Positions 1 through 19,206 of a stretch of DNA of 64,000 bases are shown one piece after another; within the stretch, counting starts at the first letter, position 1, and each line of letters starts with the position of its first letter. The DNA is from a virus (lineage: Duplodnaviria > Heunggongvirae > Uroviricota > Caudoviricetes): the IMG/VR virus record IMGVR_UViG_3300043024_000042, one strand, 5' to 3'. A program made the translations under genes and the position numbers. The notes under the pieces are model-generated. The model saw nothing but the letters and a program-made list of their open reading frames with translations, was not told the DNA's origin and made no database searches.

Positions 1-1
1 T

Positions 2-1185: not shown

Positions 1186-1220
1186 TAGAATGGATATTAA
1201 GTTTACGTTAGAAGAGGCAC

Positions 1221-2331
1221 TTGCCAAATGTCCCCCCCCTACGCGAAAAATTATTACATAGCGTAGACCTTCTTAGAAAGGCGGAGAAATTGGCGTTGAT
1301 GTATGACAGCGAGAATGGCTTTTGGACTGGCTTTAGTGGAGGTAAGGATAGTCAGGCTTTGTTTCACGTCACGCAACTCGCGGGTGTGAAGTTCAAGGGA
1401 TATTTCTCGCCTACAAGTGTAGACCCTCCCGAAGTGATTCGGTTTATACGGCACAACTATCCCGAAGTGGAGTTTTCTCCCATCAAGGAGTCCATCTACC
1501 GAAAATTTGTGGAGTTCAAATGCCTGCCGAGCATGAAAATCCGCTGGTGCTGTGCAGAGTTTAAGGAAAAGGGAGGTGAAGGTAAGGTGGTTCTTGTCGG
1601 AATACGTAATGAAGAAAGTCTGAAACGCTCCAAACGAAGGGAGGTTGAAGTATCAGGCAAGAAATACAAAGGCGATTTGGACGGCTTCAAGACATGGAGC
1701 CAAAAGCGCAGGGAGAAACTGACCAAGGATAAGAACTTTGACCAATTCTCCGAACATAAGGAGCAGATGGTAACTTGCATAAACGGCCATGACAAAATCA
1801 TCGTTTCGCCCATTATCCATTGGACGCAGCGTGATGTTTGGGAGTTTCTGAACAACGTGGTTGAGGTACCGCATTGCAGTCTGTATGATGAAGGGTATCA
1901 CAGAATTGGCTGTATTTGCTGCCCGATGGCGAGCATAAAGAACACGCTGCGCGACATCAAGCGTTACCCGCACGTCAAGGAGAACTGGATAAAGGCCATT
2001 ATGGAAGTTAGGAAAGAGGGATTGGGTGAAAATACCCCCCCCGAAAACCGAATATATACCAACTGCCGAAGCGATGGATGCCGATTCCTACCGCCATTGG
2101 ACGGACGGAAATGGGGGGGGGGAGATACCTCCCTCCGACCGAACAAGACAACTTACCGGAATGTGGGCAGGGTTTTCGGACAGCACTAACGAAGGTTGCG
2201 CGAGCGTTAGTGCGGAGAATATTGAGCGCGAGATTGCGGAGAACATCTTTGATTGGTGGATATCCAAGAAGTCGTACAAGAAATGGTACGCGGAGAAGTT
2301 TCTGCAACAACATATAGATTTTAAAGAATAA
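1221..2331 (+). CDS. PAPS-reductase-like PP-loop ATPase (DndC/DUF3440-like), frame broken at the C8 tract 2035-2042
   Basis: PP-loop motif FSGGKDSQ plus a C-terminal Cys cluster (HRIGCICCP). Frame 0 (1221..2189) degenerates after the C tract into low-complexity sequence. Frame +1 (2026..2331) continues protein-like (KTEYIPTAEAMDADSYRHWTDG..WWISKKSYKKWYAEKF). Seven C instead of eight would fuse the two frames. The start codon is uncertain: the ORF track uses TTG at 1221, and a C8 tract lies at 1232-1239. Confidence 0.65.
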
Positions 2332-2334
2332 ATT

Positions 2335-2637
2335 ATGACAGAGGATGAATATAATAAGGGGTTGTGCGCGATAAAAGACGAATACCAGCAGAAGAGAGAG
2401 GATTTGTCTAACAGATTTATCCAGCAAAACCATCGTTTTGAAATAGAAGATATTATCGAAGATAAATTTTCTCATCTGCGTATAAAAATCGAAAGTATAT
2501 ACGTAGAGCACCACCCTTTCAGTGGCTGGGTAGATATTAAATACTACGGATATGCGGTATCCAATGATAACGAGGTTGATGTAGGTAAGTGGGGCAATAT
2601 TTTTCAGAAAGATGCAGAACTTATAAAAAGAGGATGA
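2335..2637 (+). CDS. hypothetical protein, 100 aa
   Basis: ORF ending 21 nt before CRISPR leader copy 1. Confidence 0.4.
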   Translation: MTEDEYNKGLCAIKDEYQQKREDLSNRFIQQNHRFEIEDIIEDKFSHLRIKIESIYVEHHPFSGWVDIKYYGYAVSNDNEVDVGKWGNIFQKDAELIKRG

Positions 2638-2658
2638 TTATTAGGTGAAGAACAAAAT

Positions 2659-2762
2659 TGATAAAACGATATTCGGGCTGGCTGTACAGCCTTAGCGAGA
2701 GGGATTTTTCCACTCTTGAAATCATCTTTATATATTGATACATAACATATAACGTAAGACGT
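2659..2762 (+). promoter_or_regulatory. CRISPR leader, copy 1 (104 nt, 100% identical to 5599..5702)
   Basis: TGATAAAACGATATTCGGGCTGGCTGTACAGCC...TATATATTGATACATAACATATAACGTAAGACGT lies immediately upstream of the first repeat. It has an AT-rich 3' half and is exactly duplicated at array 2. Confidence 0.6.
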
Positions 2763-3123
2763 GTTGTATGTTATCTGATTTTTCAGACGATATACAGCTA
2801 AAGATAGCTGCGAGAAATACCCATGTAGTTGTATGTTATCTGACTTTTCAGACGATATACAGCCATTTAGATGTTTGGCAAAGATTTATTTGGTTGTATG
2901 TTATCTGACTTTTCAGACGATATACAGCGTGTGGTACACAGAAATCCTCTTTTTTGGTTGTATGTTATCTGATTTTTCAGACGATATACAGCATGAATAA
3001 GATTATGGTTGAATTAGATAAGGTTGTATGTTATCTGATTTCTCGGATGATATACAGCGTCGCCCATTCGCTATCTTTAATCTGAAAGTTGTATGTTATT
3101 TGATTTCTTGGATGATATGCAGC
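2763..3123 (+). CRISPR. CRISPR array 1: 6 repeats of 36 bp (GTTGTATGTTATCTGATTTTTCAGACGATATACAGC), 5 unique spacers of 28-30 bp, repeats degenerate toward the 3' end
   Basis: Repeats at 2763, 2828, 2893, 2957, 3023 (2 mismatches) and 3088 (4 mismatches). Spacers at 2799-2827, 2864-2892, 2929-2956, 2993-3022 and 3059-3087. A further decayed unit ends near 3170. The repeat is an almost full-length hairpin with a TTTT loop. Confidence 0.85.
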
Positions 3124-3247
3124 GAATACTGCATCATAATGATACTATTCATTTTTAGATGATATACATCCGAAGTATCTCTACATAAATGTTAATAATT
3201 TAGTTACAAGATTTAGAATATGTGGAATATTAAAAGGAATTGGTTAG

Positions 3248-3616
3248 ATGATCGTTATACAGAAACAACCTTGGCATGATTTCACCCGTGTAATCATCAT
3301 GCAGGTTCACGAGAGCAAACCCGTAGCCGTTGCATCCGTTCAGATTGACCTTTACGAGAAAGAGCAGTGCTGGGGCGGTACGGCTTACATCTATGGCTTG
3401 TGGGTGGACAAGGATATTCGCAGAAGGGGCATCGCAAAAACGCTGCTTATGCTTGTCGAGAAATACGCAAAGCAAAACGGACACAAGTCAGTGATATTGG
3501 AATGGAACTTGAACGATACCCCGGTTGAAGTCCTGCATTGGTATATAAGGTGCGGATATGAGGGTATCGAGTTTAAGGATAATAGCAAACGGATTAAATT
3601 GGAAAAGAAATTTTAG
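3248..3616 (+). CDS. GNAT-family N-acetyltransferase
   Basis: Acetyl-CoA motif A, GLWVDKDIRRRGIAKTLL (R-x-x-G-x-A). About 120 aa, typical of minimal GNATs. Confidence 0.6.
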   Translation: MIVIQKQPWHDFTRVIIMQVHESKPVAVASVQIDLYEKEQCWGGTAYIYGLWVDKDIRRRGIAKTLLMLVEKYAKQNGHKSVILEWNLNDTPVEVLHWYIRCGYEGIEFKDNSKRIKLEKKF

Positions 3617-3619
3617 CCT

Positions 3620-3811
3620 ATGAAGATTAAAGCGTTTATATACACACTCGGTTTCTGCTCCATCCTGCTTGTTGCTGTATTGACACTCTATAATTTCATT
3701 CAGTTATGCGGAGCGGTGGACGGAATCATCTTGTTTGCGCTTATACTGCTGTTCATTTACAGCACTTACAGACTGATACTATATTATATAAGCCATGAAC
3801 AAGGAAAATAA
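3620..3811 (+). CDS. small membrane protein, two predicted TM helices
   Basis: Hydrophobic translation FCSILLVAVLTLYNF...IILFALILLFIYSTY. Confidence 0.4.
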   Translation: MKIKAFIYTLGFCSILLVAVLTLYNFIQLCGAVDGIILFALILLFIYSTYRLILYYISHEQGK

Positions 3812-3942
3812 AATGGGGCACATCCAATTTGGCATACTCCAAGAGTTTGACGGTATGGATATTGGTACCGTAATAAAGGTGCTTGCCAGCGTGTATGCGG
3901 AGATAGAGATATGCAGCGCGGAACACGGAGGGATAGAGGAAT

Positions 3943-4485
3943 ATGACCTATTCTCTTACTTCGTGGATTGCGTGGAGGATTACAAACAAATTAAAAAACA
4001 GTGCGAAAATGGTGATTAAGAGTGACAAAAGTCCTGGAGACAGATATTATCAATTTAGAGGATGGGAACAGTGCTGGGGCATGAGAGAAAGCCGCGGATG
4101 GGTATATGGGAGCCTTATCAATTATGATGGAGGAATTGCCATACGCGAATGTGCCGAAATTAACTACGACACTTCCATCGTTGAGGGTACAGCCTGCCAA
4201 TGGGTCAATGATTTTGACAGTAATAACCGATGGCTTTACGAGGGTGATTACGTGAAGTTCAGTTATCATTACCAAACCTACATAGGCATGGTGATGTTTG
4301 ACGACAAGACCAAGAGTTACGCTATCCAGTTTGATGATGGCTATCCCAAGAAGAGGCACATCAAATCCCTGCTTCCCCTGCATATTTTCAGCAGGGAGGA
4401 ATTGACGGTGGTGGGCGACTTTAAGACCACACCTAACCTGTTGCTTTGTGATGATGAACTTGACGGACGGGAGAGAGAATTATGA
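3943..4485 (+). CDS. hypothetical protein, 180 aa, Trp/Tyr-rich
   Basis: ORF overlaps the shorter 3795..4019 ORF, which is in another frame. No recognisable motif. Confidence 0.4.
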   Translation: MTYSLTSWIAWRITNKLKNSAKMVIKSDKSPGDRYYQFRGWEQCWGMRESRGWVYGSLINYDGGIAIRECAEINYDTSIVEGTACQWVNDFDSNNRWLYEGDYVKFSYHYQTYIGMVMFDDKTKSYAIQFDDGYPKKRHIKSLLPLHIFSREELTVVGDFKTTPNLLLCDDELDGREREL

Positions 4486-4751
4486 ACGGGGAATTACATC
4501 TGACGGTACAGAACAAAACATGGAATGAAGTTGTTAATGGTAGACAGAAATTCATCTATCGGGACACAACGAAGTATTTCCGTGACCGAATACAGAAACA
4601 GATACCCTACAAGGTGACGTTTCGCAAGGAGTACACCAACATTAGAATAAGTTACGAGGTGTTGGGTGTCACTGTCGGATATGGAGACCCGAAATACGGA
4701 AGTGACGAAAAGAAGAAGTATTATATTATTCAAATAGGTAAAAGAGTATAA
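4482..4751 (+). CDS. hypothetical protein, 89 aa
   Basis: ATGA overlap with the previous gene. Confidence 0.4.
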   Translation: MNGELHLTVQNKTWNEVVNGRQKFIYRDTTKYFRDRIQKQIPYKVTFRKEYTNIRISYEVLGVTVGYGDPKYGSDEKKKYYIIQIGKRV

Positions 4752-4752
4752 A

Positions 4753-5031
4753 ATGAAAACTATATATAAGTATTTGATTGGGAAACCCGGTGTACCGGTT
4801 GTGCTGCCGATGCCCAAGGGTGCGCAGTTCTGCGATGTGCAGATGCAGGGCGATAGCTTTGCGATGTGGTTCCTCGTTGATCCCGATATGGAGAAAGAGG
4901 ATAGAGTGTTTGAGTTGGTGGGTACCGGCTATAAAGTATACCCCAACATGGAATACAGAGGCACCGTTCAGATAATGGATGGTCGTGTTGTACTTCATTT
5001 GTTTGAACGTCTTAGACAGATTCCGGTATGA
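4753..5031 (+). CDS. hypothetical protein, 92 aa
   Basis: Tightly packed ORF. Confidence 0.4.
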   Translation: MKTIYKYLIGKPGVPVVLPMPKGAQFCDVQMQGDSFAMWFLVDPDMEKEDRVFELVGTGYKVYPNMEYRGTVQIMDGRVVLHLFERLRQIPV

Positions 5032-5291
5032 CAGAAAAGAGCATTAAGGTAATTGTGCTAATACTCTTTTCGGTCTTTTTCTGCCATACCTTATACGTCA
5101 AACACCTTCTGTATGAGGGTTATGAACGGCAGATGAGATTGATAGATAAGTATGAGCAGGCATTGTTTGAGTGTGACAGCCTTTTAAGGGATAAAATGAT
5201 GGAGACAATTTACCGTCAACAAAACATAAGTTATGAAGAGCAAGAAGATACGGAAAATATACCACAGACTGATAGCGGCGGTGCCTTATAA
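5028..5291 (+). CDS. hypothetical protein with an N-terminal TM helix
   Basis: ATGA overlap. Translation VIVLILFSVFFCHTLY. Confidence 0.35.
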   Translation: MTEKSIKVIVLILFSVFFCHTLYVKHLLYEGYERQMRLIDKYEQALFECDSLLRDKMMETIYRQQNISYEEQEDTENIPQTDSGGAL

Positions 5292-5601
5292 TATATACAC
5301 TGCCTTTCAGGAACAATATCCCGAACTGTTGGGCGAGCTAAAAAGTGAGAAAGACCTTTATATGGTTTGGTGTATCGAGACCCGGCAAATCGGTGTATCT
5401 TATCGGATACGTGAGGATTTCCCATCCAAAATAATGCACGAGGCTTCTTGCGATCGTCTTGACGATGGTCGTTGGTTCAGAAGCGAGTATCTGATAGACG
5501 AGCATACCAACACTTATAATGTATATGTCTATTTCCCTGAAAACATTTGGACCATTATGAACATTGTAAAAATGTGGAATAAGAAAAGAATTTATGACTG
5601 A
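5233..5601 (+). CDS. hypothetical protein; stop codon abuts leader copy 2
   Basis: ORF runs to a TGA at 5599-5601. The 5' end overlaps the previous gene, so the true start is probably internal. Confidence 0.35.
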   Translation: MKSKKIRKIYHRLIAAVPYNIYTAFQEQYPELLGELKSEKDLYMVWCIETRQIGVSYRIREDFPSKIMHEASCDRLDDGRWFRSEYLIDEHTNTYNVYVYFPENIWTIMNIVKMWNKKRIYD

Positions 5602-5702
5602 TAAAACGATATTCGGGCTGGCTGTACAGCCTTAGCGAGAGGGATTTTTCCACTCTTGAAATCATCTTTATATATTGATACATAACATATAACGTAAGAC
5701 GT
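5599..5702 (+). promoter_or_regulatory. CRISPR leader, copy 2 (identical to 2659..2762)
   Basis: Exact 104-nt duplicate of the array-1 leader, starting at the stop codon of the upstream gene. Confidence 0.6.
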
Positions 5703-6181
5703 GTTGTATGTTATCTGATTTTTCAGACGATATACAGCTCTAAGTCATAGTGATAGTTTATAGTAATGTTGTATGTTATCTGATTTTTCAGACGATATAC
5801 AGCCAGAAATTAGTAAGTATTCAAATTGGCTTGTTGTATGTTATCTGATTTTTCAGACGATATACAGCGAGGTACTCTTTTTATGGATTCCTTTCCTGTT
5901 GTATGTTATCTGATTTTTCAGACGATATACAGCAAGAGGAAAATCAGTGCATCACTGGTGCCTGTTGTATGGTATCTGATTTTTCAGATGATATACAGCG
6001 AAATAGATAAGAGTTCGCATAGGTTGTATGTTATCTGATTTTTAGATGATATACAGCCAAAGATAATAAAATCTATGACAGAGCGAGTTGTATGTTATTT
6101 GATTTCTCGGATGATATACAGCGCCAACGACGTTGGACTTTTAGAGTTGTATGCAGTTTGTAAAGCCGAATGATATACAGC
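5703..6181 (+). CRISPR. CRISPR array 2: 8 repeats with the same 36-bp consensus, 7 unique spacers of 23-30 bp, 3' repeats progressively degenerate
   Basis: Repeats at 5703, 5768, 5833, 5898, 5964 (2 mismatches), 6023 (35 bp), 6087 and 6146 (heavily decayed). Spacers at 5739-5767, 5804-5832, 5869-5897, 5934-5963, 6000-6022, 6058-6086 and 6123-6145. Confidence 0.85.
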
Positions 6182-6218
6182 GAACTGCCATTAGCATTAT
6201 TAACCAAAGCGATAATTT

Positions 6219-7319
6219 ATGATAATAACAAGAAAGATTCAGGTCTATGTCTCGGACGAGGATAAAGACCAAAGAAAGGAAATGGTTCACACCGTTTACA
6301 CATGGCGAGACCTTGTTAGGCGCACGGCAAACATGATTGTGGCGCACAAGTTCGTTCAGCAACAAGTCCGTGATTTCGTCTACTTGAAGGACGAGATTCA
6401 GGAGAAGTTCTACGTCAAGGATATCTTGAAGGAGGGCAAGGGTATGAGCGAGCAGAACACCACCTACCGCATCGCAGCGGATATGTTGAAGGGCAAAGTT
6501 CCTGCCGACATCTATTCCTGCCTTAATCAGGCGGTGGCGAACACCTTCAAAGAGACCATCAAGGATGTGAACACGGGTAAGGCGAGCGTGAGAAGTTACA
6601 AGAACAACATTCCCATGCCGTTCAGTGCGAAAGCCCTTTCCAATATCCATTGGTCGGAAGAGGATAACCGTTTCTACTTCACTCTGTTCGGTATTCCCTT
6701 TGCAACATCCCTCGGTCGTGACAGAAGTAACAACAAGGTGATCATCGAAAGAACCATCAGCAAGGAGTACAAACTTTGCTCGAGTTCCTTGCAGATTGAT
6801 GATAAGAAAAAGAAGATGTTTCTCTTGCTCTGCGTGGATATACCCAAGAAGGAGGTCGAGTTGGAGAAAGGCAAGCAACTGCTCGCCACCCTCGATGTAA
6901 TGGCACCCATTGTCGCTGTTATCGGCAGCAAGCGGTATGAGATAGGAACCAAGGAAGAGTTTACCTACCGCAGGGTGCAACTGCAAGAGGCGGTAAGACG
7001 CTGCCAGATTGAGAATAGATACAATAATGGCGGGAAGGGTCGCAAGCGCAAGACGCAGGCGATAGAGCGGTTTCATGAGAAGGAGAATAACTACGTAGAT
7101 ACGAAACTGCACACCTACTCCCGTATGCTGGTCGATTTGGCGGTCAAGAACAAATGCTCCGAGATTGTCCTGCTTGACCAAAAGCGCAGGGAGGACGAGG
7201 CGAAGGAGGATAATCAGAACGGAGAGCCTTTCGTTTTGCGTAACTGGTCTTACTTCGGGTTGGAGAGTAAGATTGATTACAAGGCCAAGACGGTTGGGAT
7301 TGCGTTAATTAAAAAATAA
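6219..7319 (+). CDS. Cas12f/TnpB-like RuvC-fold protein, C-terminally truncated (no Zn finger or RuvC-III), RuvC-II Glu replaced; TldR-like dead mini-Cas12 architecture
   Basis: Recalled from memory, not by search: similarity to Un1Cas12f1/TnpB. TnpB-type N-terminus RKIQVYVSDEDKDQRKEMVHTVYTWRDLVRRTANMIV. WED/RuvC-I block MFLLLCVDIPKKE..LLATLDVMAPIVAVIG, cf LNLSIDVPKID..IIGGIDVGVKSPLVCAI. Block GGKGRKRKTQAIERFHEKENNYVDTKLHTYSRMLVDLAVKNKCSEIVLLDQKRRED, cf HGAKNKLKPITILTEKSERFRKKLIERWACEIADFFIKNKVGTVQMENLESMKRKED. C-terminus NWSYFGLESKIDYKAKTVGIALIKK, cf FWPYAEMQNKIEFKLKQYGIEIRKV. The ORF stops where the Cas12f Zn finger would begin. The start is preceded by the variant element GCATTATTAACCAAAGCGATAATTTATG. 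Confidence 0.6.
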   Translation: MIITRKIQVYVSDEDKDQRKEMVHTVYTWRDLVRRTANMIVAHKFVQQQVRDFVYLKDEIQEKFYVKDILKEGKGMSEQNTTYRIAADMLKGKVPADIYSCLNQAVANTFKETIKDVNTGKASVRSYKNNIPMPFSAKALSNIHWSEEDNRFYFTLFGIPFATSLGRDRSNNKVIIERTISKEYKLCSSSLQIDDKKKKMFLLLCVDIPKKEVELEKGKQLLATLDVMAPIVAVIGSKRYEIGTKEEFTYRRVQLQEAVRRCQIENRYNNGGKGRKRKTQAIERFHEKENNYVDTKLHTYSRMLVDLAVKNKCSEIVLLDQKRREDEAKEDNQNGEPFVLRNWSYFGLESKIDYKAKTVGIALIKK

Positions 7320-7330
7320 TTCAGATAAAG

Positions 7331-7909
7331 ATGGGAGAAGAAGAGAAGATACTGGATGTGGACGGGAAGCCCGTAGGATTTGGTAAATGCAACCTTGAAG
7401 GAATACAAGGTTTGGGAGAGGATTTTAATGCGTTGGCCGACGATATGGCCAATGATGTTAAGCAAATATTAGGTCACTACCTTGTGCAGAAATGTATAGA
7501 TGAATTTGTCAATATCGAAGAGAAGGAGCCTGATCATACCGAACCCGAAAAAGAATCCCTTACTTATGGTAAAGCGCAGATTAATTATGAAACTGGCGAA
7601 CTTGTAAAGACGAGTATAGGCTCGTATATTTGTTCCAGTGCAACGCTCCCCGTGTCCGCCCCATTTTATAGCCGCTCTATATGGGAATATTGGGTGTATT
7701 TCTGTTTGAGAGGCCAAGTCCCAGCTGATCCTGACTTTAAGGACTACGCTTACTCCAATTTCTGGCGCATCGTCAAAGAGATGATATACCACAAGAAGAG
7801 AATGGGGCTTGCAAAGTCGGAAGGATTCAGGAGACACCACGAGAAACGATTGAAGAGTTTGGAAAATACTTATAAATTTAGTTTGACTTGGAATGGAAAC
7901 GGAAATTAA
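7331..7909 (+). CDS. hypothetical protein; N-terminus (GKCNLEGIQGLGEDFNALADD) may be a decayed RuvC-III remnant in a different frame from 6219..7319
   Basis: KCN...EDFNALADD loosely resembles Cas12f KCNFKENADYNAALNI. Only one Cys, so no Zn finger. About 150 further residues are unlike Cas12f. Confidence 0.3.
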   Translation: MGEEEKILDVDGKPVGFGKCNLEGIQGLGEDFNALADDMANDVKQILGHYLVQKCIDEFVNIEEKEPDHTEPEKESLTYGKAQINYETGELVKTSIGSYICSSATLPVSAPFYSRSIWEYWVYFCLRGQVPADPDFKDYAYSNFWRIVKEMIYHKKRMGLAKSEGFRRHHEKRLKSLENTYKFSLTWNGNGN

Positions 7910-8534
7910 AATGAATGACCATGTAATCCTCAAACCAAGCTACTCGCATTGGCAGGTCAAGAACGTGGATTACAACTATGACACGGATGGGAAATATTTC
8001 ATCTGTAACGGATTTGGTTTAACCAGGTGGGTTAAGCCCAGTGAGATTGAGGTTAAGAATCCAAAATTTTCATTTGGCGAGGAAGTTATTTTTCGAGAGC
8101 AGCGCGATGGTGATGATTTTGCGATGGTCTGTGTATTCGTTTTGGGCTTTCATTGGAATATTAATGAAAGATGTTATATGTACTTTATGTCTAATAACAA
8201 GTGGTATTCGGAGGATAAAATACTGGACGTCTGTTCTTTCGGCGAGTGCCAAAAGGATAAGGAACCCAATCTCGCCTCCAATCCCGACAAGTCCGACAAA
8301 CTTGCTGGTGAGTTGGATAAGATAAATGCTCCTATGACCATGCTGTTCCGTCTCTTGTTTACCGACTTGCAGCACGTCCTTTCAAAATACAACGCTCGCA
8401 TTGAGGTCGGAAAGGATTGCAAGCTGCGGCTCCGCATCCGTGTCAATGACTATGACCGGTGCTTTAAGGGACCGAAGGCCATCAGGGATGTTACGGATTA
8501 TACTTCTTTCAGAGAGGATTTGCCGTTTGAATAA
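7893..8534 (+). CDS. hypothetical protein, 213 aa
   Basis: ORF only. No recognisable motif. Confidence 0.4.
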   Translation: METEIKMNDHVILKPSYSHWQVKNVDYNYDTDGKYFICNGFGLTRWVKPSEIEVKNPKFSFGEEVIFREQRDGDDFAMVCVFVLGFHWNINERCYMYFMSNNKWYSEDKILDVCSFGECQKDKEPNLASNPDKSDKLAGELDKINAPMTMLFRLLFTDLQHVLSKYNARIEVGKDCKLRLRIRVNDYDRCFKGPKAIRDVTDYTSFREDLPFE

Positions 8535-8543
8535 AAATAGGAA

Positions 8544-8795
8544 ATGGAACAAGAACAAAACAAGACCTTTCAGGAGGCGGTATTCGTTATCCTTTGCGTT
8601 ATCGCCTCCCCTATTCTGGTATTGTGCATTATCATCGACACGATACGCTCCTTTGTTAGCCTCGGTTCGAGGTTATCCTTCTATGAAGCCACGGAAACGA
8701 CACTTGACTTCGTTTTCTTTCTTGCAACCGAAATCGACGATTTAAGAAAAGTGATATGGAAAGCATTGAAAAATATAGTGCGGAGCGAGCCTTGA
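8544..8795 (+). CDS. small membrane protein
   Basis: Hydrophobic core AVFVILCVIASPILVLCIIIDTI. Confidence 0.4.
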   Translation: MEQEQNKTFQEAVFVILCVIASPILVLCIIIDTIRSFVSLGSRLSFYEATETTLDFVFFLATEIDDLRKVIWKALKNIVRSEP

Positions 8796-9798: not shown

Positions 9799-9820
9799 TC
9801 GAATCAAAAACCTTAGAGAT

Positions 9821-10312: not shown

Positions 10313-10622
10313 TACATCCGTCAATGGAGAGGTGCTACCCGAGCAGAAGCGGGAGCAGCGTTATCCTCTCCGTCTCAATTCCAACACCGTCATTATGGTC
10401 AGGAAGGAGAATCTGAATGAGGAATATGCCGAGAAGAAGCGTATCCAGTTAGGACTTATAGCCGTTGAGAAGCCCAAGATGAAGGGCAACCAACGTGTTA
10501 CCATTACGGAGAATGAGTTGCGCAGACTGCGTGAAGAGGGTGTGACCGTCAAGGATATCGCCCACGAGTACAACTGCGGACCGAGAACGATAGCAAGACG
10601 AATTAAAGAGTTTGGATTATGA
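10296..10622 (+). CDS. small HTH DNA-binding protein
   Basis: C-terminal helix-turn-helix TVKDIAHEYNCGPRTIARRIKEFG. ATG at 10296 overlaps the dut 3' end. The ORF-track start at 10158 is an over-extension. Confidence 0.45.
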   Translation: MRKKVDTSVNGEVLPEQKREQRYPLRLNSNTVIMVRKENLNEEYAEKKRIQLGLIAVEKPKMKGNQRVTITENELRRLREEGVTVKDIAHEYNCGPRTIARRIKEFGL

Positions 10623-11590
10623 CATTAAGAGTATTCGAGGCTTTTGCAGGATATGGCTCGCAAGCCATTGCATTAAAGCGACTTGCAAGATTTTACCCCC
10701 CCCTAAAATTGGAATTTGTAGGGATTTCGGAAATTGATAAAAACGCTATCATTGCTTATAAAGCCATACATGGAGACATCCGTAACTATGGCGATATATC
10801 GGCTATTGATTGGAGTGAAGTTCCTGATTTCGACCTGTTTACTTACTCTTTTCCCTGCCAGGATATTTCCAACGCTGGCTTGCAGAAAGGCTTTACAGAG
10901 GGCAGCGGGACGCGCAGCTCGTTGCTTTGGGAGTGTAAGAAAGCGATAGAGGTCAAACATCCAAAATACCTGCTGATGGAGAATGTGAAGGCACTTACCC
11001 AAAAGAAGTTCATGCCATATTTCAAGATGTGGGTGGATTGTTTGGAGGGTTATGGATACAAGAACTTTTGGAAAGTGCTTAACAGCAAGCACTACGGGGC
11101 TCCGCAAAACAGAGAGCGGGTGTTCATGGTATCCATCCGTGATGATGGCGACAATCCATCATACACTTTTCCCGAACCGTTCCCCTTGCAGAAACGTCTC
11201 AAAGACATTCTCGAGAAGGAAGTGGATGAGAGTTTCTATCTGCGCCAGGAGCAAGTGCAGCGCATCGTGGCACATTGCGAGAGAAAGGTTGCGGAGGGCT
11301 GCGGGTTCAAGACGAACTTCACTGATGGCAGCAGCGTGAGCGGAGCTATCAAGACCAAGGAGGGTAATCGCGAGTACGATACCTACGTGAAGGAACCTGC
11401 GCCAAAATACGGGAATAGCAGATTGAACAAGATGATCAAGGATGGGAAGATTGATCCGGACAAAACAGAGTGGGTGGATGCTTACAACCAACCCACCAAC
11501 GATGAGATATCCGGCACCATCCTTACCCGAGTGGATGCGAGCAATCATTACTTAATCAACGAGGGGGGTAAAATGCGTGAACCAATATGA
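10619..11590 (+). CDS. C5-cytosine DNA methyltransferase, N-terminal catalytic part (motifs I-VIII)
   Basis: FAGYGSQ (motif I), ISEIDKNAIIAY (motif II), FPCQDIS (motif IV PCQ), LMENV (motif VI), QNRERVF (motif VIII). Contains a C8 tract at 10696-10703. Ends just after a G6 tract at 11563-11568. Confidence 0.85.
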   Translation: MTLRVFEAFAGYGSQAIALKRLARFYPPLKLEFVGISEIDKNAIIAYKAIHGDIRNYGDISAIDWSEVPDFDLFTYSFPCQDISNAGLQKGFTEGSGTRSSLLWECKKAIEVKHPKYLLMENVKALTQKKFMPYFKMWVDCLEGYGYKNFWKVLNSKHYGAPQNRERVFMVSIRDDGDNPSYTFPEPFPLQKRLKDILEKEVDESFYLRQEQVQRIVAHCERKVAEGCGFKTNFTDGSSVSGAIKTKEGNREYDTYVKEPAPKYGNSRLNKMIKDGKIDPDKTEWVDAYNQPTNDEISGTILTRVDASNHYLINEGGKMREPI

Positions 11591-12431
11591 TGAGAATGGT
11601 GTGCAGCGGCATTTGCAGGATAGAATCTTTGATTCAGAAGGCGTGAGTACCGCTGTGACTGTATCCTTCCATCCAAACATAATTGATTATGGAGACAGAA
11701 CAGATGATTCTAAAACCAGTCAGGACGGAGATAGCAAAACAACTCCGCAAGATGGGAATTGAAAAGTTCGGCAATCGGCAACTGATACCTTCCAAAGATG
11801 GAGTGAGTAACACGATTACCACCGTCCTTAAAGACAATCTTTTGCTGGAGCCAATCACTTGCGCATCCCGTAAGCGTGGTAGTGTTCACAAGATTGAATT
11901 GGGGGGGTAATTGCGAACGCTATTACCACTATCAATACAGACAGCATGATTGCAGAACCTATAAAGCAAGTTGAGAGTGAAATTAAAGATTAAGCAGGCA
12001 ACGAAGCAGGGATGGATAGAGGTTCCAGAGGGGGGTATTTGACATTGCCTACCCCAACAGCAAGAACCGAAGGGGTCGCGTTCAGGATGGCGGCATGGTC
12101 TGCCCTGCATTAACCTGCGAGCCGATAATCTGCGTGTATGAAGGATGTGATAATCAAGGCGAGCGTTCACCCGCTCAGCCACAAACTTGAATTTAAGGGA
12201 TGGGGAAGTTTTGGTGACGTTTGTCCTGCTTTAAGGGCGACTGACTATAAAGCCCCCGTTGTGATGATTATGGAACAAGAACCTATTAATACGGATAGCG
12301 AGGGTAACGCTTACACCATTACAGCAAGGTACCCTATACTCAACGCTGCGAATGTCATGGGAGGTAATCACTTCCCTAAGACGGTGGTTAGCGAGCATGA
12401 CGAGAATTACCCCCCCTACCCGATAATTTAG
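11553..12431 (+). other. fragmented target-recognition-domain (TRD) region of a multispecific C5-methyltransferase: at least 4 TRD-like cores spread over three frames, separated by G/C homopolymer tracts
   Basis: TL-type TRD cores appear in different frames: EGVSTAVTVS (frame 0, ~11640), DGVSNTITTV (frame 1, ~11800), NAITTINTDS (frame 0, ~11920) and EGNAYTITARY (frame 0, ~12310). Tracts: G6 at 11563-11568, G7 at 11901-11907, G6 at 12030-12035, C7 at 12410-12416. Confidence 0.5.
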
Positions 12432-12442
12432 ATTTAAGAAAG

Positions 12443-12895
12443 ATGGCGAAGAAAGAAGTTAAGCGTGCCGCGGACGAACTGAAAAAGATTGCCCAAGCGT
12501 CACGGAGTTGTGATGTCGGTGTGACTATCAATCCCGACAATTCGCTCAGACCCTTCAATAAGGGCAGTAAGGCGAAGGATGGAATTAGTGAGTATTGTAC
12601 CGACTACGAGTGCGGTATCGGTTCCACGACCATCGCCGCACGGCCCAACAAGGTCTACGGTGATTCAACCCGTTATCGAATCCGCAAGCTGACCCCGGTT
12701 GAGACGGGTCGCTTGATGGGTATGGATGATGAGGATATACAGAAGATGAAGGATGCGGGATTGAGCAAGTCCGCCATGTACAAGCTGCATGGTAACTCCA
12801 TCGTGGTGGATGTGCTGTTCTATATCTTCCGCAATCTCTTCATTGATGAGTTCAAGAACCCGCAACCGAAAGGGCAGTTGACATTGGATTTTTAA
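12443..12895 (+). CDS. C5-cytosine methyltransferase, C-terminal part (a fifth TRD core plus motifs IX-X)
   Basis: GSTTIAARPNK (TRD core), RKLTPVETGRLMGMDD (motif IX) and KLHGNSIVVDVLFYIF (motif X). One extra C in the 12410-12416 tract would fuse it to the upstream frame-0 TRD. Confidence 0.75.
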   Translation: MAKKEVKRAADELKKIAQASRSCDVGVTINPDNSLRPFNKGSKAKDGISEYCTDYECGIGSTTIAARPNKVYGDSTRYRIRKLTPVETGRLMGMDDEDIQKMKDAGLSKSAMYKLHGNSIVVDVLFYIFRNLFIDEFKNPQPKGQLTLDF

Positions 12896-12904
12896 TTGTA
12901 GTGT

Positions 12905-13264
12905 ATGGATAGATTAGCGTATTACGGAACAAGCAGCGGCCAAAGAGGACATTACTTCACGGCTATCAGGGGCAAGTTCCCCGACGCGGAGAAGGCTCAT
13001 CTTATAGAAGTCGTTGATGATTGCTGGCTGGAGAGCCATCTATACCAGCATAGCGATGGCAAGCCCACATTGGTCTACATCCCCGTGAGCGGTAAATATT
13101 ATGCCGTTTATGCGGTCAATCGCAGCAAGAATGACAATCGCGGTGGGAGTATAACCGCTTTGATAGCGGATTATGTTCCGGAGAAATCCCGAGAGGCTTG
13201 CATTGAGGAATTTAAGAGTGAGATAGCAAATAACGCATTTCTTAAAAATCAGTTCGATATATGA
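12905..13264 (+). CDS. hypothetical protein, 119 aa
   Basis: ORF. No recognisable motif. Confidence 0.4.
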   Translation: MDRLAYYGTSSGQRGHYFTAIRGKFPDAEKAHLIEVVDDCWLESHLYQHSDGKPTLVYIPVSGKYYAVYAVNRSKNDNRGGSITALIADYVPEKSREACIEEFKSEIANNAFLKNQFDI

Positions 13265-14176
13265 AAATAGGATTGGTAGACCTTGATGCAAGGGTTGGAG
13301 GCGGATTCCCCAATCTCGCTCTGATGAAAATATCCGCTTGGCACAAGGCAAGGGGTGACGATGTGGATTGGTTCACTCCGCTCTGGGGGGGGGTACGACA
13401 AGGTATATATAAGCAAGATATTCACCTTCACTCCCGACACGGACGATTACTTTGGCTGCGAGGTAGTCAAAGGTGGTACCGGCTACGACATTGAAGGGAA
13501 ACTTCCCGATGAGATAGAGGCGGTGCAGCAGCCTGACTACTCCATCTACCCCAACGTAAACTTCTCCGTGCAGTTCTACTCGAGAGGTTGTATACGCGCC
13601 TGCCCTTTCTGTTTGGTAAGAAGGAAGGAGGGTTACATCCATCCGGTCGAGCCGTTAGGCTTGAATCCGAAAGGTGATTGGATAGAGGTGCTTGACAATA
13701 ACTTCTTTGCCAATCCCGAATGGAAGTCCGCTATCAATCATCTTATCAGTTGCAAACAGAAGGTGAACCTGCATGGTGTGGATATCCGTATAATGAACGA
13801 GGAACAAGCGTACTGGCTCAACAAGGTCCATTTAAAGAAGAATATCCATATTGCGTGGGATATGCCGCAGATAGACCTCACGGATAAGTTAAGGGAGATG
13901 ATAAAATATATCAAGCCCTACAAACTGACCTGCTACGTGCTTGTCGGTTTCAACTCCACCATTGAGCAGGATTTGTACAGACTGCGCAGGTTAAAGGAAC
14001 TTGGCATTACCCCTTTCGTCATGCCGTTCCGTGACTACGAGAATAAGCATAAGCCCTCCGCTTATGAGCGTGACCTTGCTCGCTGGGCCAACAAGATGTG
14101 GCTGTTCAAGTCCATGGACTTCCCTGACTTTGAGCCGAGGAAAGGATTCAAATGTTCAAATTACTTAAATAAGTAA
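13261..14176 (+). CDS. radical SAM enzyme, frame broken at the G9 tract 13385-13393
   Basis: CxxxCxxC cluster SRGCIRACPFC. The N-terminal segment (MKIGLVDLDARVGGGFPNLALMKISAWHKARGDDVDWFTPLWGG) is in frame 1, and the body is in frame 2 from the tract onward. Eight G would fuse them. Confidence 0.6.
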
Positions 14177-14179
14177 AAG

Positions 14180-14341
14180 ATGAAAACAATAAAACTTCTT
14201 TTAGTGATTATTTTAATTGTTGTTTTGTTCTCATGCGCTCTTAGGTTATTGAGCGCGTCCTCTACTTATGCCAATATTTTAGGCTTTTCGATTATGGTTT
14301 TGGAACTTGGTGGTATTTTTGAGTATTTAACTGGAGAATGA
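14180..14341 (+). CDS. small membrane protein or lipoprotein, 53 aa, not in the ORF track
   Basis: MKTIKLLLVIILIVVLFSCALRL... is hydrophobic with an LFSC lipobox-like motif. Ends with an ATGA overlap to the next gene. Confidence 0.35.
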   Translation: MKTIKLLLVIILIVVLFSCALRLLSASSTYANILGFSIMVLELGGIFEYLTGE

Positions 14342-15129
14342 AAAAGTTAAGTTTCTTAAAGGTGCTTTTTATAGCACTTATTTCAATGATGATGTTCTCA
14401 TCTTGTGCAGAGCGCATTGATGCAGGACATGAAGGAATTCTCGTAAACCTCTATGGTGATGAGAAAGGTGTGGGTGACGTGTCAATGTGTACCGGCATGG
14501 TGTGGTACAACCCTATCACGACCGCGGTATACGAATATCCTACATTCGTGCAGACTGTGGACTACGAACCGTTCACCATCAATGCAAAGGATGGATCCGA
14601 GTTTACTGTGGACCCGACAATCTCCTTGAAGATTATTGACGGGAAATCTCCCGAAGTGTTTAAGAAGTACAGAAAGGAGTTGAAGGATGTAATCAATACT
14701 ACGCTCTACAATTACGTAAAGAACGCTTTCCGTATTCAGCTGAATAACTTCACTACGGATTATATTGTAAGCAATCGTGATAGTATTGAAAACGCGATTG
14801 AAAAGTATCTTTCATCAGACTTAAAGAAAGAGAATTTTCAACTGGAGCAACTTACTTCCGGCTTGAAGTATCCCGAGATTATCGTGAAGTCTGTTAACGA
14901 GAAGAACAAGGCGATACAAGACGCACAACGAGCGGAAAACGAAGTGAAGGTAGCCGAAGCCAACGCAAAGAAGGTGTTGGTGGCAGCGCAAGCGGAAGCG
15001 GAAGCAAACCGATTGAAGCAGCAGGCCCTCACTCCGCAGATTCTCGAAAAGATGTGGATTGACAAGTGGAACGGAGTTTTGCCGGTATACGGACAAGTGC
15101 CTACACTCTTTAAGGATATCAGCAAATGA
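14338..15129 (+). CDS. SPFH/band-7 (prohibitin-like) family lipoprotein
   Basis: Signal peptide with lipobox (MMMFSSCAE). SPFH-type body with a C-terminal Ala/Glu-rich coiled coil (KVAEANAKKVLVAAQAEAEANRLKQQAL). Confidence 0.6.
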   Translation: MKKLSFLKVLFIALISMMMFSSCAERIDAGHEGILVNLYGDEKGVGDVSMCTGMVWYNPITTAVYEYPTFVQTVDYEPFTINAKDGSEFTVDPTISLKIIDGKSPEVFKKYRKELKDVINTTLYNYVKNAFRIQLNNFTTDYIVSNRDSIENAIEKYLSSDLKKENFQLEQLTSGLKYPEIIVKSVNEKNKAIQDAQRAENEVKVAEANAKKVLVAAQAEAEANRLKQQALTPQILEKMWIDKWNGVLPVYGQVPTLFKDISK

Positions 15130-15383
15130 CAGCGTATTATTATGTGATAGTCTTGCTGCTCGACCTTTGGATTTGGAGGTTGAGACGCAAAGCCACAGAC
15201 TTGAAGGCCCCACGATGGATATTGCTGTTTTTCTTTCTTATCTCCTTAATACCTATTGTCGGGATGGGTCTTGAATTGGCTTTGATATACATTCTGCAAC
15301 GATGCCTTTGGGAACAAGGTGTAAGGACGAGGGGGATGATTTTATTGTTTAAGGTATATCAGTATTTCACAAAGGAGGTTTGA
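15126..15383 (+). CDS. small membrane protein, 2 TM helices
   Basis: YYYVIVLLLDLWIW...ILLFFFLISLIPIVGMGL. ATGA overlap with the SPFH gene. Confidence 0.4.
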   Translation: MTAYYYVIVLLLDLWIWRLRRKATDLKAPRWILLFFFLISLIPIVGMGLELALIYILQRCLWEQGVRTRGMILLFKVYQYFTKEV

Positions 15384-15384
15384 T

Positions 15385-15672
15385 ATGGGCTTGTACGAAA
15401 TACTCTATATTGTAGTGTCAGTTATCTCTTTAGGCTCGTTTTTAATCCTTCATTATCTCTATGAGGTAAGTAAAAATAACGTGGCGAAGATAGTATTCCC
15501 GCTTTGGCTGTACCTTATCTATCTGCTTGCTATGCTTATACCCTTCCTCAATTTGGCATTGTCGATAGTCGTTTTCTTTGCGTTGCTAATGTGTGCATCG
15601 GATGATGATGTGGAGTGGCGACCGAGGGGTGTAATTAAGATAATAGCGGATATTCTCTCGAAAGAGTTTTAA
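15385..15672 (+). CDS. small membrane protein, 3 TM helices
   Basis: Very hydrophobic ORF directly downstream. Confidence 0.4.
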   Translation: MGLYEILYIVVSVISLGSFLILHYLYEVSKNNVAKIVFPLWLYLIYLLAMLIPFLNLALSIVVFFALLMCASDDDVEWRPRGVIKIIADILSKEF

Positions 15673-15716
15673 TTGGGATGGGCGGCATTGCCGCTCTCCC
15701 TTAAATTGGAAAACAC

Positions 15717-16034
15717 ATGATATTCAAAGTCTATAATGCCGCAGGCCCGCTTCACGACGCGGACCAATGCGAGGTGAACCCATACGAATCCATCCTGCGA
15801 CCGAGTGATGATCCGCTCATCCTTGGCACGGTTGAGATTCGTTCCCTTGAAGAGTTGCGCGACTTCCAACTCAAATGCGCGGAACTGTCACGCAGCGATG
15901 ATTTGTTAAATAGATGTGGTGAGGATATGTGGATGAGAGGGTTTGTCCCTTGCGCTTTTGTCAGAGTGACTTTCCACCGGGAAAGCGGGGAGAAAAACTA
16001 TGACGGGAGTATCTGCATCCAGGACCACTATTAA
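15717..16034 (+). CDS. hypothetical protein, 105 aa
   Basis: ORF only. Confidence 0.35.
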   Translation: MIFKVYNAAGPLHDADQCEVNPYESILRPSDDPLILGTVEIRSLEELRDFQLKCAELSRSDDLLNRCGEDMWMRGFVPCAFVRVTFHRESGEKNYDGSICIQDHY

Positions 16035-16054
16035 TCTCTAATGCTGGATAAACG

Positions 16055-16426
16055 ATGATGAACGACAAACAACTTAGGCAGACGATTGACTACTCATGGT
16101 CCAATGGCCGTGAGGATGAGAGCGAGACCCCTGCGGAGTACACGCAGGGATTTATTGCAGGTATGCAGTTCGCCGAGCGTGGCGAACCGGTACCCTATGA
16201 TAGGGTGCGGCTATCTCTCGAATGGGAGTTCTCTTTGAGTGACTTGAAGGATTACTACAAGTCTATGGGTATGTCCCTTGTTGGGGTGGAAGAAAAGTTT
16301 GACGAGATTCGCGGACGGATGTACGACGTGCCTTTCTCTATTCTCGGAGAGCCGAGATTGACGAAGTTGCAGCTCATTGGTTATACCCTCCGCAAATTGG
16401 AAGAATTGGTGGAAAAGGATGGGTAG
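16055..16426 (+). CDS. hypothetical protein, 123 aa
   Basis: ORF only. Confidence 0.4.
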   Translation: MMNDKQLRQTIDYSWSNGREDESETPAEYTQGFIAGMQFAERGEPVPYDRVRLSLEWEFSLSDLKDYYKSMGMSLVGVEEKFDEIRGRMYDVPFSILGEPRLTKLQLIGYTLRKLEELVEKDG

Positions 16427-16727
16427 ATTTATTGCACGACAGCCGAACGGACGCATCTGCGTGTTCTCGACTGTACTGGACGATTTAATTGCTTATAACC
16501 TTACGGATAGGCAGTATGTGGCATGGTGTGTCAAGGATGCCATTCGTGAGGCGAATAGGCAGGCCAATGAGGATATCAACCATTTCATGCACGATTTCTC
16601 GGATGTGAAGAATGAGTTCTCTCCTGGAAATGAAGCGGACCTCGCTACATTCAAAAAGAGATTGAAGCAGATGGGTGATAAGGAATGGAAAGATTTTATT
16701 TGTGATATTAATGATGGAAAGGAATGA
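16377..16727 (+). CDS. hypothetical protein, 116 aa
   Basis: ORF. The start probably lies near the stop of the previous gene. Confidence 0.35.
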   Translation: MVIPSANWKNWWKRMGRFIARQPNGRICVFSTVLDDLIAYNLTDRQYVAWCVKDAIREANRQANEDINHFMHDFSDVKNEFSPGNEADLATFKKRLKQMGDKEWKDFICDINDGKE

Positions 16728-17059
16728 AGAAGAAAATAGCAAGATGGCTTTATAATGTGGCGGTGAAACTTAATCCGTCATTGTTTAAGTGTGTGACAAT
16801 CCGTGAACTTGATACGAGGGTGCAGACCGTTTCAGCGGAGGTTTGCTTTGACCCTGAATATCTTTGTGCCATTTATGACAATAACGAGCAAATTCAGAAT
16901 ATGATGCAGGAGGAAGCCGCACATAGACTGACAAAGGATTTGGGTAGTTTTTGCACGTTCGAGAAGAGAGTGGATGATGTTGGCCGTGTTTATATGCGTG
17001 CCTATATCTTAGTTGGCAAACCTGATATTATTCGATATGGGAAAGGATTGGAAGGGTGA
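16724..17059 (+). CDS. hypothetical protein, 111 aa
   Basis: ATGA overlap. Confidence 0.4.
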   Translation: MKKKIARWLYNVAVKLNPSLFKCVTIRELDTRVQTVSAEVCFDPEYLCAIYDNNEQIQNMMQEEAAHRLTKDLGSFCTFEKRVDDVGRVYMRAYILVGKPDIIRYGKGLEG

Positions 17060-17638
17060 TGCCAACGGGGTGTTCAAAACACTCGGGGCATCGAATCATA
17101 ACAAGGACGGAGAGAGGGAGAGTAATGACTACTATGCCACCGACCCGATAGCGATAGACAAACTAAGAAAGGAGATAGATCTTCCCGAAGTGATTTACGA
17201 GCCTGCTTGTGGTAGCGGACATCTTGCCCTGCGGCTTATCGAGTACGGGCATGAGGTTATATCATCGGACTTGGTGGATAGAGGGCATGGAAAGGGTGGT
17301 GTGGATTTCCTGAAAACGGAATCATTGCCGGACGATCGGATAACCTGCATCCTGACGAATCCACCCTACAAGTACGCGACAGAGTTTGTCGTTCATGCCC
17401 TTAAACTGCTCCCCGAAGGAGGGCTGTGTTGTATGTTTCTCAGGACGCTGTTTTTAGAGGGCAAGACGCGGTTTGAACGTATCTTTAGTATTACCCCCCC
17501 TATTGCGTTTTGCAGTCGTCAGAGCGCATCAGATGCGCCAAAAACGGGGAGTTTGACGGGTCGGCTGGCTGTCAGTCTTATGCCTGGTTTGTGTGGAGGA
17601 AAGGTTGGTACGGGGAACCTACTATCAGGTGGATATAA
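17013..17638 (+). CDS. N6-adenine DNA methyltransferase, frame broken at the C7 tract 17494-17500
   Basis: EPACGSGHL (motif I) and TNPPY (motif IV). After the C tract the -1 frame reads YCVLQSSERIRCAKNGEFDGSAGCQSYAWFVWRKGWYGEPTIRWI*, a typical MTase C-terminus ending at 17638. Eight C would restore a single ORF. The current frame runs to 17684 as low-complexity sequence. Confidence 0.7.
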
Positions 17639-17769
17639 TAAAAGGGCGACGCTTCGCCCTCTGTCCTTAATAAACCATTATTAAAACAAATCATACTATG
17701 AAGAAACATGCGTAATTAACGTGAGACAAATATACGAAAGTCTTTCTTATCTCCAAAATTTAGGGAATA

Positions 17770-19204: not shown

Positions 19205-19206
19205 TT

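Follow-up and report, generated by a model that had tools for sequence, protein, structure and literature searches.

Why should four DNA-modification genes of a single phage all be interrupted, as assembled, at runs of G or C? This question is raised by a 64,000-nt stretch of DNA (referred to here as the window; 47% G+C) that represents IMG/VR virus record IMGVR_UViG_3300043024_000042, a member of the Caudoviricetes. The genes concerned, all of which are encoded on the plus strand, are a PAPS-reductase-like gene (1190–2331), a C5 methyltransferase (C5-MTase) locus (10619–12895), a radical SAM (rSAM) gene (13261–14176) and an N6-adenine DNA methyltransferase (N6A-MTase) gene (17037–17684). Three-frame translation and comparison with homologs agreed with a preliminary description of this DNA in that each of the four is broken at such tracts. 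Both in-frame and out-of-frame alleles of the rSAM, N6A-MTase and PAPS-reductase-like genes, as well as of parts of the C5-MTase, exist in nature, and it is highly probable that replication slippage at hypermutable G/C runs switches each gene, or part of a gene, reversibly ON and OFF.

The tracts clearly exceed the background of the window. In total, 12 G/C runs of at least 6 nt were counted, of which 11 had been listed before, with coordinates and lengths that were all exact on re-count, while the twelfth is a C6 run at 34801–34806. The distribution of run lengths is bimodal, with a roughly ten-fold drop per extra base up to length 6 and a renewed rise at 7 nt or more: C4, C5, C6, C7 and C8 occur 87, 10, 1, 2 and 4 times, respectively, and G4, G5 and G6 occur 96, 6 and 2 times, followed by one run each of G7, G9 and G10. 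Compared with Markov simulations of order 1 to 4, nine runs of at least 7 nt were observed where 0.1–3.1 were expected, and six of at least 8 nt where 0–0.6 were expected. Eight of the nine runs of at least 7 nt are located in the first 17.5 kb, i.e. in 27% of the window (binomial P=2×10–4), and eight of the nine are inside genes. Only four A/T runs of at least 7 nt were counted, and the earlier statement that long A/T runs are common in this genome was therefore overstated.

The tracts had been described as lying exactly at frame breaks, which holds for those starting at 1232, 2035, 11563, 11901, 12030, 12410, 13385 and 17494, but not for those at 10696 and 2113, which are in frame, or for that at 36577, which is intergenic. 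Similarly, restoration of each gene by a 1-nt change in tract length, as had been proposed, applies to the rSAM gene (with G9 becoming G8) and to that of the N6A-MTase (C7 becoming C8), but not to the PAPS-reductase-like gene, which requires two changes, or to the C5-MTase, which requires four tract changes and also contains three frame junctions outside the tracts. The shifts required are +1 at 1232, 2035, 11563, 12030 and 13385, and –1 at 11901, 12410 and 17494.

Evidence that tract length varies while the surrounding sequence does not was obtained from independent assemblies. Megablast of window positions 1–20000 against a phage collection and an exact 30-mer scan of viral and metagenome contigs yielded no match; exact-protein look-ups led to public contigs that represent the same strain and two diverged ones (contigs and loci are designated here by L numbers, and proteins by P numbers). 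For the window strain, two Joint Genome Institute (JGI) contigs (L161 and L165) were shown to be 100% identical over 20 kb, with equal tract lengths, while contigs from two other samples (L162, L166 and L171 from one, L170 from the other) were identical over 10.7–20.8 kb except for the presence of G10 instead of G9 at 13385. For example, the comparison of L170 with the window covers 20,810 nt and revealed 0 mismatches and one indel, which is this G10/G9 difference. The same pattern was observed in one of the diverged strains (strain B; 88–90% nucleotide identity to the window), which is represented by three samples of one JGI series. Here, L332 and L168 differ over 10,155 nt by 0 mismatches and five indels, all of them within G/C runs of at least 8 nt, whereas none of the 28 A/T runs of 5–6 nt in the aligned L332 stretch was changed; L333 and L332 differ over 2,865 nt by 0 mismatches and two indels of 2 nt each, both located in tracts. 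Steps of 2 nt among the differences are represented by G8/G10 and C7/C9. Furthermore, identical tract lengths were found repeatedly, in four to eight independent JGI and Logan contigs, and out-of-frame lengths are retained in diverged strains with 88–94% identity. Neither one restoring length everywhere nor one invariant broken length was seen in the public assemblies.

The ends of several contigs are also placed with respect to the tracts. The start of L333 and the end of L332 are each located exactly 126 nt from the first base that would distinguish another tract allele, and L169 starts exactly at the C8 tract at 10696. Such ends fit assembly-graph bubbles at k=127, if this was the k used by the assembler, which suggests that mixed alleles were present within single samples. 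Separately, a 34,144-nt contig, Ga0484778_000068 (JGI 3300043107), was found to share the coordinates of the window (2905–25129 corresponding to 2905–25129), and the two assemblies therefore share their first base, possibly because a genome end or a repeat boundary is located there.

In the rSAM gene (phrog_9298), a G9 tract at 13385–13393 separates a 44-aa N-terminus from the remaining 260 aa, and G8 would be the in-frame length. The reconstructed 304-aa protein matches PHROG profile positions 1–304 of 305, and more than 7,900 rSAM homologs of ~300 aa retain the N-terminal 44 residues. At this tract, G9 is present in the window, L161, L163, L164, L167, L168 and L169, G10 in L162 and L170, and the in-frame G8 in L332. 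The N6A-MTase (NPPY motif, phrog_799) is assembled as a 215-aa product with an out-of-frame tail, owing to a C7 tract at 17494–17500 with an in-frame length of C8; its in-frame form comprises 200 aa and ends at 17638. Besides C7 in the window, C6 was identified in L168 and L169 and the in-frame C8 in L167, the product of which (P0126) is identical to that of the window for the residues upstream of the tract. Three forms of the protein were found, namely the out-of-frame 215-aa form in eight contigs, the in-frame 200-aa form (P0125 and P0126) and an out-of-frame 163-aa form in seven contigs.

The PAPS-reductase-like gene, which matches PF01507 and phrog_424, would encode ~379 aa if in frame, yet occupies three frames as assembled. 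Its N-terminus, MDIKFTLEEALAKC, is homologous to that of L001 and L003, and its C-terminal helix, IAENIFDWWISKKSYKKWYAEKFLQQHIDF, is conserved in intact homologs of ~280 aa. A C8 tract at 1232–1239 is out of frame, and C7 would join the conserved 14-aa N-terminus to the PAPS domain; the alleles observed are C7 (L332), C8 (window and L334) and C9 (L333), with P0147 carrying an in-frame N-terminus. Two further tracts delimit a variable linker of 26 aa, i.e. a C8 tract at 2035–2042, located at its start and out of frame in the window, and a G10 tract at 2113–2122, located at its end and, as assembled, in frame with the conserved C-terminus. The frame at the former depends on the A-run that follows, with A4 in the window placing C8 out of frame and A3 in strain B placing C8 in frame. 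Across assemblies, C8 and C9 alleles were found at 2035, and G8, G9 and G10 alleles at 2113. All three frames of the linker (2043–2112) are open, and each is used by some protein variant (P0152, P0146 and P0149). In P0152 (343 aa), both C-terminal tracts are in frame and the C-terminus is restored, while P0146 carries two compensating shifts, such that another frame is used for the 26 aa between the tracts while the conserved C-terminus is retained. Eight length variants of the protein were found among members of 90%-identity protein clusters. Tracts at the same domain boundary were observed in L001, L002, L003 and L070, and even in relatives with 55–71% protein identity the tracts are always positioned between the PAPS domain and the variable linker that precedes the conserved C-terminal helix.

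The C5-MTase locus is of the multispecific type, with PF00145 matching both its N-terminal and its C-terminal part. An N-terminal core with motifs I–VIII is followed by tandem target recognition domain (TRD) modules in several frames and by an open reading frame (ORF) at 12443–12895 that encodes a TRD together with motifs IX–X. Five or more of the TRD modules align to single-ORF relatives of 512–723 aa, in which the same modules share one frame. The first tract of the locus, C8 at 10696–10703, is in frame (FYPPLK) and was C8 in all assemblies examined, while the other four are out of frame in the window. At 11563–11568 (G6; in-frame length G8 or G5), the alleles include G6 in the window, the in-frame G8 in L168 and L169, and G10 in L332, and a 416-aa protein (P0131) reads through. 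At 11901–11907 (G7; in-frame length G8), the corresponding strain B sequence, TTA followed by G7, is in frame, as is the G5 of strain B at 12030–12035 (G6 in the window; in-frame length G5 or G8). The tract at 12410–12416 (C7; in-frame length C8) is located between a 97-aa TRD ORF and the 150-aa C-terminal ORF, and was found as C7 in the window, C9 in L168 and L169, and C8 in L332, where a fused 265-aa product (P0140) and also a 209-aa product (P0138) are encoded. Across assemblies, N-terminal parts of 323, 334, 357 and 416 aa and C-terminal parts of 150, 165, 166, 209 and 265 aa were seen. In addition, the window carries at 11396–11403 the sequence CCTGCGCC, an interrupted counterpart of a C8 tract of strain B (L168:7995–8002) that ends an additional 117-nt TRD module; tracts are therefore gained or lost by few substitutions, and complete TRD modules next to them appear and disappear.

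To obtain ratios of nonsynonymous to synonymous substitution (dN/dS), the window and strain B were compared codon by codon in each frame of each C5-MTase segment. The ratio was 0.05 for the catalytic core and 0.14 for the C-terminal part, while the TRD segments, each in its own and different frame, gave 0.09, 0.25, 0.10, 0.10 and 0.34; one module, TRD4, with only three differences, was uninformative. The other two frames gave values mostly between 0.9 and 4.8, the lowest being 0.53, and were undefined where no synonymous change was scored. Each informative segment is thus under purifying selection in the frame that is supported by homology.

Three +1 frame junctions (J1–J3, at ~11690, ~11970 and ~12130) lie away from any tract and are conserved in the window and strain B; these frame changes were placed on hand-checked alignments of the window, L168 and L002, the automatic map of tblastn segments being too coarse for most relatives. 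At J1 (11683–11762), the next TRD ORF begins at an ATG located at 11689 within GATTATGGAG, the old frame stops at 11760–11762, and dN/dS in the overlap favours the new frame (0.26 versus 0.63). J2 (11965–11993) contains 19 extra nt compared with single-ORF relatives. At J3 (12129–12190), an ATG at 12138 within GTATGAAG opens an ORF that reaches motifs IX–X when the tract at 12410 is C8, and the JGI gene call of P0140 (265 aa) begins at this ATG in strain B. The new-frame ATG of both J1 and J3 is embedded in TATGG or TATGA, and the previous frame ends 17–24 codons past it. Tract changes that would compensate J1–J3 into one long ORF were considered and rejected, as none of the frames stays open through those segments in the window, L168 or L002, and no path between the tracts yields a single ORF in any of these three.

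This type of junction recurs many times in L002, the methyltransferase gene of which carries 17 tracts of 7–10 nt in 3.9 kb. Within 3 kb of this locus (12900–15950), 16 TATGA motifs were found, compared with ~2 estimated from base composition. At ~13 of them the running frame ends 7–23 codons later, and at these points the embedded ATG opens an ORF of 42–112 aa that contains the next TRD and one G tract. In the junctions, TATGA encodes a conserved Tyr-Glu of the tail of the preceding module. Only three inter-tract segments of L002 are open in any frame, and the module at 14920–15108 is a complete in-frame ORF of 62 aa. Junctions of the same type were identified in L239, L215, L236 and L247, but never in single-ORF relatives.

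This arrangement allows a tentative and, in our judgement, rather doubtful proposal, namely that the TRDs of tract-rich methyltransferases form an operon-like array of mini-cistrons instead of being parts of one polypeptide. In such an array, each module would start at the ATG embedded in the TATGA of the preceding module, stop shortly after the next ATG, and consist of one TRD with its own G tract on Gly-Gly. A protein search with a TRD mini-ORF retrieved its own lineage only, a result that says nothing about how frequent stand-alone TRD ORFs are. If the proposal is true and TRD peptides of 45–110 aa work with a split core of N- and C-terminal fragments, each specificity would be switched independently by its own tract, and as many as 2^n methylation patterns could be explored by a phage population (with n=17 for L002 and ~5–8 for the window); the flank of the long tracts, which is described next, would then mark a dedicated way to make or keep them.

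The earlier observation that most tracts are found in a TAC(n) context was corroborated, as nine of the 12 window tracts carry it (P ~4×10–7 against a background of 11%). Among 151 distinct runs of at least 7 nt in related loci, TA follows on the G strand in 48%, compared with 10–12% for runs of 4, 5 or 6 nt. This G(n)TA signal is symmetric at the DNA level, being located 3' of coding-strand G runs and 5' of coding-strand C runs. That TA after a tract provides an immediate stop codon was considered and rejected, as coding-strand C runs carry it on their 5' side. An echo of the TAACCCC early-gene element, which had been suggested for this context, found no support: TAACCCC occurs 12 times in the window (5.2 expected), with nine copies clustering elsewhere, on the minus strand between 28 and 34 kb (28227–34426), and is a separate repeated motif without demonstrated link to the tracts.

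The design was shown to extend well beyond the window strain. Relatives were drawn from viral, metagenome and genome collections, and 70 loci with both methyltransferase halves were compared. Almost every gene without tracts is a single intact ORF (1.1–2.1 kb), while most tract-bearing genes are out of frame. One gene in human-gut contigs from different studies presents an allelic series, TTAATTTC-G(n)-TAAAAATT, with G7 in L176 and L186, the in-frame G8 in L178, L188 and L253, and G9 in L173, L183, L187 and L254. At least 99 of the 151 distinct long tracts of all loci are found in C5-MTase (74), PAPS-reductase-like (21), rSAM (3) and N6A-MTase (1) genes, a bias to be read with the selection of the loci for these genes in mind, although the genes cover only a small part of each ~20-kb locus; several of the remaining 52 are located in TRD arrays that were missed by the search. 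The nearest genome matches are Bacteroidales (Muribaculaceae, Prevotella and Porphyromonadaceae), and the tracts are present in cultured bacteria, i.e. G8, G8 and C11 in Paramuribaculum intestinale DSM 100749, and G11 and C8 in Muribaculaceae Isolate-036. No tract was found in more distant relatives with at most 46% identity, which are mostly from non-Bacteroidales genomes. We regard the phage as a temperate phage of Bacteroidales, for which the closest host evidence indicates Muribaculaceae or Prevotellaceae.

Several tracts of related loci are located outside the four genes. A recurrent AAAATC-G(7-9)-TAAAAACCGC tract, the length of which differs among loci (L232:1414, L233:2281, L264:858 and L266:6839; also L174:5904 and L244:11093), precedes the start of a conserved ORF (MVTPERL...) by ~40 nt and may represent a promoter-proximal switch. 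A small Cys-rich prophage ORF carries C9, C12 and C9 in L229:14154, L261:14158 and L275:14156, respectively. At L168:3628, an in-frame G8 is present in a gene with a DGQHR motif, which we take to be ParB-like and for which the sole library match is a PHROG of unknown function.

Slipped-strand phase variation, one of the explanations put forward in the preliminary description, is thus borne out by the comparison of independent assemblies, in which genomes differ at tracts only and in-frame as well as out-of-frame alleles occur. The tracts have the attributes of contingency loci, which serve bet-hedging in bacteria, being coding tracts beyond background length with indels that are not accompanied by substitutions nearby, and with alleles in both frame states in nature. 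That the tracts exist but their lengths were miscalled, the genes actually being intact, is highly improbable. Miscalling would also give assemblies that differ only at homopolymers; however, the same lengths recur in the four to eight independent JGI and Logan contigs, differences include 2-nt steps, A/T runs of 5–7 nt are invariant while only G/C runs of at least 8 nt differ, in-frame lengths are not the rule in any assembly, the diverged strains keep out-of-frame lengths, and the design is shared by genomes of cultured isolates and by many unrelated studies. A modification module that decays in a domesticated prophage, with the tracts merely acting as break points of stable pseudogenes, is very unlikely. 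Such decay would agree with the OFF state of all four genes in the window and eight same-strain contigs, and with the fixed non-tract frame junctions of the C5-MTase, but not with purifying selection on every informative segment in its own frame, with in-frame alleles of every gene in near-identical genomes, with tract positions that are conserved across distant relatives, or with the absence of substitutions where tract indels abound.

Programmed recoding, the other explanation offered previously, would make the out-of-frame lengths functional through ribosomal frameshifting or RNA-polymerase slippage, possibly aided by the TA that follows. The rSAM tract is G9 in three diverged strains, TA follows 48% of the long tracts and A or G is present two bases past the first flanking base in 57%, such that the run would often be succeeded by TAA or TAG, at which ribosomes could pause; runs of 9–10 nt are, moreover, long enough for transcriptional slippage. 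Against this, shifts of both signs would be needed (+1 at five sites and –1 at three), tract lengths differ between identical genomes, and the symmetry of TA at the DNA level rules it out as a downstream translational signal. With tract lengths varying both ways and in-frame alleles occurring, programmed frameshifting is not needed, and we consider it unlikely; RNA-polymerase slippage on G9–G10 could add leaky expression without being the primary mechanism.

A number of points nevertheless weigh against phase variation. Heterogeneity within populations was deduced only from differences between assemblies and from contig ends, and the JGI samples that differ only at tracts apparently belong to one series, which limits their independence as populations. 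The all-OFF state is common to eight public contigs of the window strain, and the in-frame rSAM allele was found once, in a gene cut by a contig end; OFF states may therefore be long-lived. The assumption that the PAPS-reductase-like and rSAM proteins modify DNA is based on family names and gene neighbourhood. Lastly, tract switching alone cannot yield one full-length C5-MTase, which leaves several polypeptides, another recoding step, or retention of the middle modules for another reason, such as recombination.

By replication slippage, which we infer to be the mechanism, strands would mispair during replication within 6–10 G:C pairs, and one or two base pairs would be gained or lost at a rate far above that of substitution. 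The tracts of the four genes are coding and fall mostly on Gly-Gly or Pro-Pro codons, either inside a TRD or where two domains meet, and a change in length would therefore shift the downstream frame. The population would then be a mixture of genomes in which the PAPS-reductase-like gene, the rSAM gene, the N6A-MTase gene and individual C5-MTase parts are independently ON or OFF, with the all-OFF state of the window presumably representing one such variant. The proposed benefit is bet-hedging of the DNA-modification pattern of the phage, as hosts with classical restriction would favour modification and hosts with modification-dependent systems would favour none.

Elements of this system have precedents. 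In C5-MTases of Bacillus phages (SPR, phi3T, rho11s and H2), one catalytic core serves tandem, self-contained TRDs. The core motifs I–VIII and IX–X and the tandem short TRDs are shared with the locus described here, but the Bacillus phage enzymes are single polypeptides without tracts, whereas here overlapping small ORFs carry a G tract on a conserved Gly-Gly in most modules. M.AquI and M.EcoHK31I are natural two-polypeptide C5-MTases with one piece encoded in an overlapping frame; by analogy, a two-piece enzyme, in which the 323-aa and 150-aa fragments of the window are active together, is plausible, although M.AquI and M.EcoHK31I consist of two fixed pieces without phase-variable tracts. We know of no C5-MTase that is composed of three or more pieces or that uses TRDs in trans.

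In lytic Campylobacter phages, tracts are reportedly found in receptor-binding and structural genes, and the host itself is said to use polyG phase variation (work attributed to Sorensen et al. 2021). The phage described here likewise carries polyG tracts in its genome, but these are located in DNA-modification genes of a temperate Bacteroidales phage, with up to 17 per gene and a G(n)TA flank. The report on hypermutable polyG tracts in Campylobacter phages (Sorensen et al. 2021, Cell Rep 35:109214; pmid 34107245, as cited in PMC12823448) relates them, to judge from its title, to phenotypic diversity and evasion of bacterial resistance. For phage T2, a homopolymer in the DNA-modification gene agt was shown to switch modification reversibly, with reversion ~1000-fold above that of a point mutant and with a trade-off between two kinds of restriction (Gomez, Barrick and Waters 2025, PMC12633550). 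The same switching logic, with a bet-hedging benefit like that demonstrated experimentally for agt, is proposed here. However, the T2 runs are poly-A simple sequence repeats in an AT-rich genome, with 9 nt at the agt locus and runs of at least 6 nt counted in the genome survey (PMC12633550), and such runs are common in T2, whereas G/C runs of 7–10 nt are far outside the run-length distribution of the window and concentrated in few genes, with several tracts per gene that permit compensating double shifts.

Phase-variable bacterial methyltransferases and phasevarions (ModA, ModM and the homopolymer-bearing methyltransferases of Helicobacter pylori, among others; PMC4417156, PMC6902483 and PMC3936762) also use simple repeats for random ON/OFF methylation. 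Unlike the phage-borne and apparently orphan C5 and N6A enzymes of the window, these are chromosomal components of Type III or Type I/II restriction–modification systems that control host regulons. Gene calls and Pfam marks revealed no restriction gene among the neighbours of the C5-MTase and the small N6A-MTase, which are surrounded by phage early genes; ten neighbouring ORFs, three of them next to the methyltransferases, gave no Pfam match. Full-text literature searches returned no account of homopolymer switching in methyltransferases of Bacteroidales phages or prophages, nor is it mentioned in a large study on methyltransferases of Bacteroides prophages. Contingency loci in Campylobacter and T-even phages and phase-variable bacterial methyltransferases are thus already known, while a methyltransferase with many tracts and many ORFs, the linker of the PAPS-reductase-like gene with its two tracts and its frame neutrality, and the G(n)TA signature look new.

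Other features of the window were recorded alongside the four genes. A C8 tract, GGTACCCCCCCCAATT, at 36577–36584, to which no strand is assigned, is located in a ~500-nt non-coding gap between divergent ORFs (35457–36380 on the minus strand and 36972–38498 on the plus strand), where it may be promoter-proximal and could affect a promoter. An A9 run, GGGTAAAAAAAAAG, at 52061–52069, is in frame in the ORF at 51728–52198, just upstream of the 3268-aa tape-measure gene (52494–62300), and is a candidate slippery site for a tail-assembly-chaperone frameshift. Two arrays of 65-nt tandem repeats (2763–3060 and 5702–6123), with an inverted repeat, GTTGTATGTTATCTGA...TCAGACGATATACAGC, in every unit, flank early genes and adjoin a transposase-like ORF (6219–7319; phrog_506); they may represent protein-binding iterons or transposition sites.

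Phage contingency loci have been described only recently, and those of the window are aimed at the phage's own DNA-modification genes, in phages of a dominant gut group, the Bacteroidales. Metagenomic catalogues routinely annotate such genes as fragments or pseudogenes. The G(n)TA signature provides a concrete handle on what creates or maintains long G/C runs, and the multi-tract, multi-ORF layout makes it testable whether a C5-MTase can be assembled from separately translated and separately switchable recognition modules, with cultured lysogens (Paramuribaculum intestinale DSM 100749 and Muribaculaceae isolates) offering experimental access. It follows from the finding that phage populations in the gut are mixed with respect to epigenetic state, a point relevant to host range, to the arms race between restriction and modification-dependent defence, and to how diverse the epigenomes of gut Bacteroidales are.

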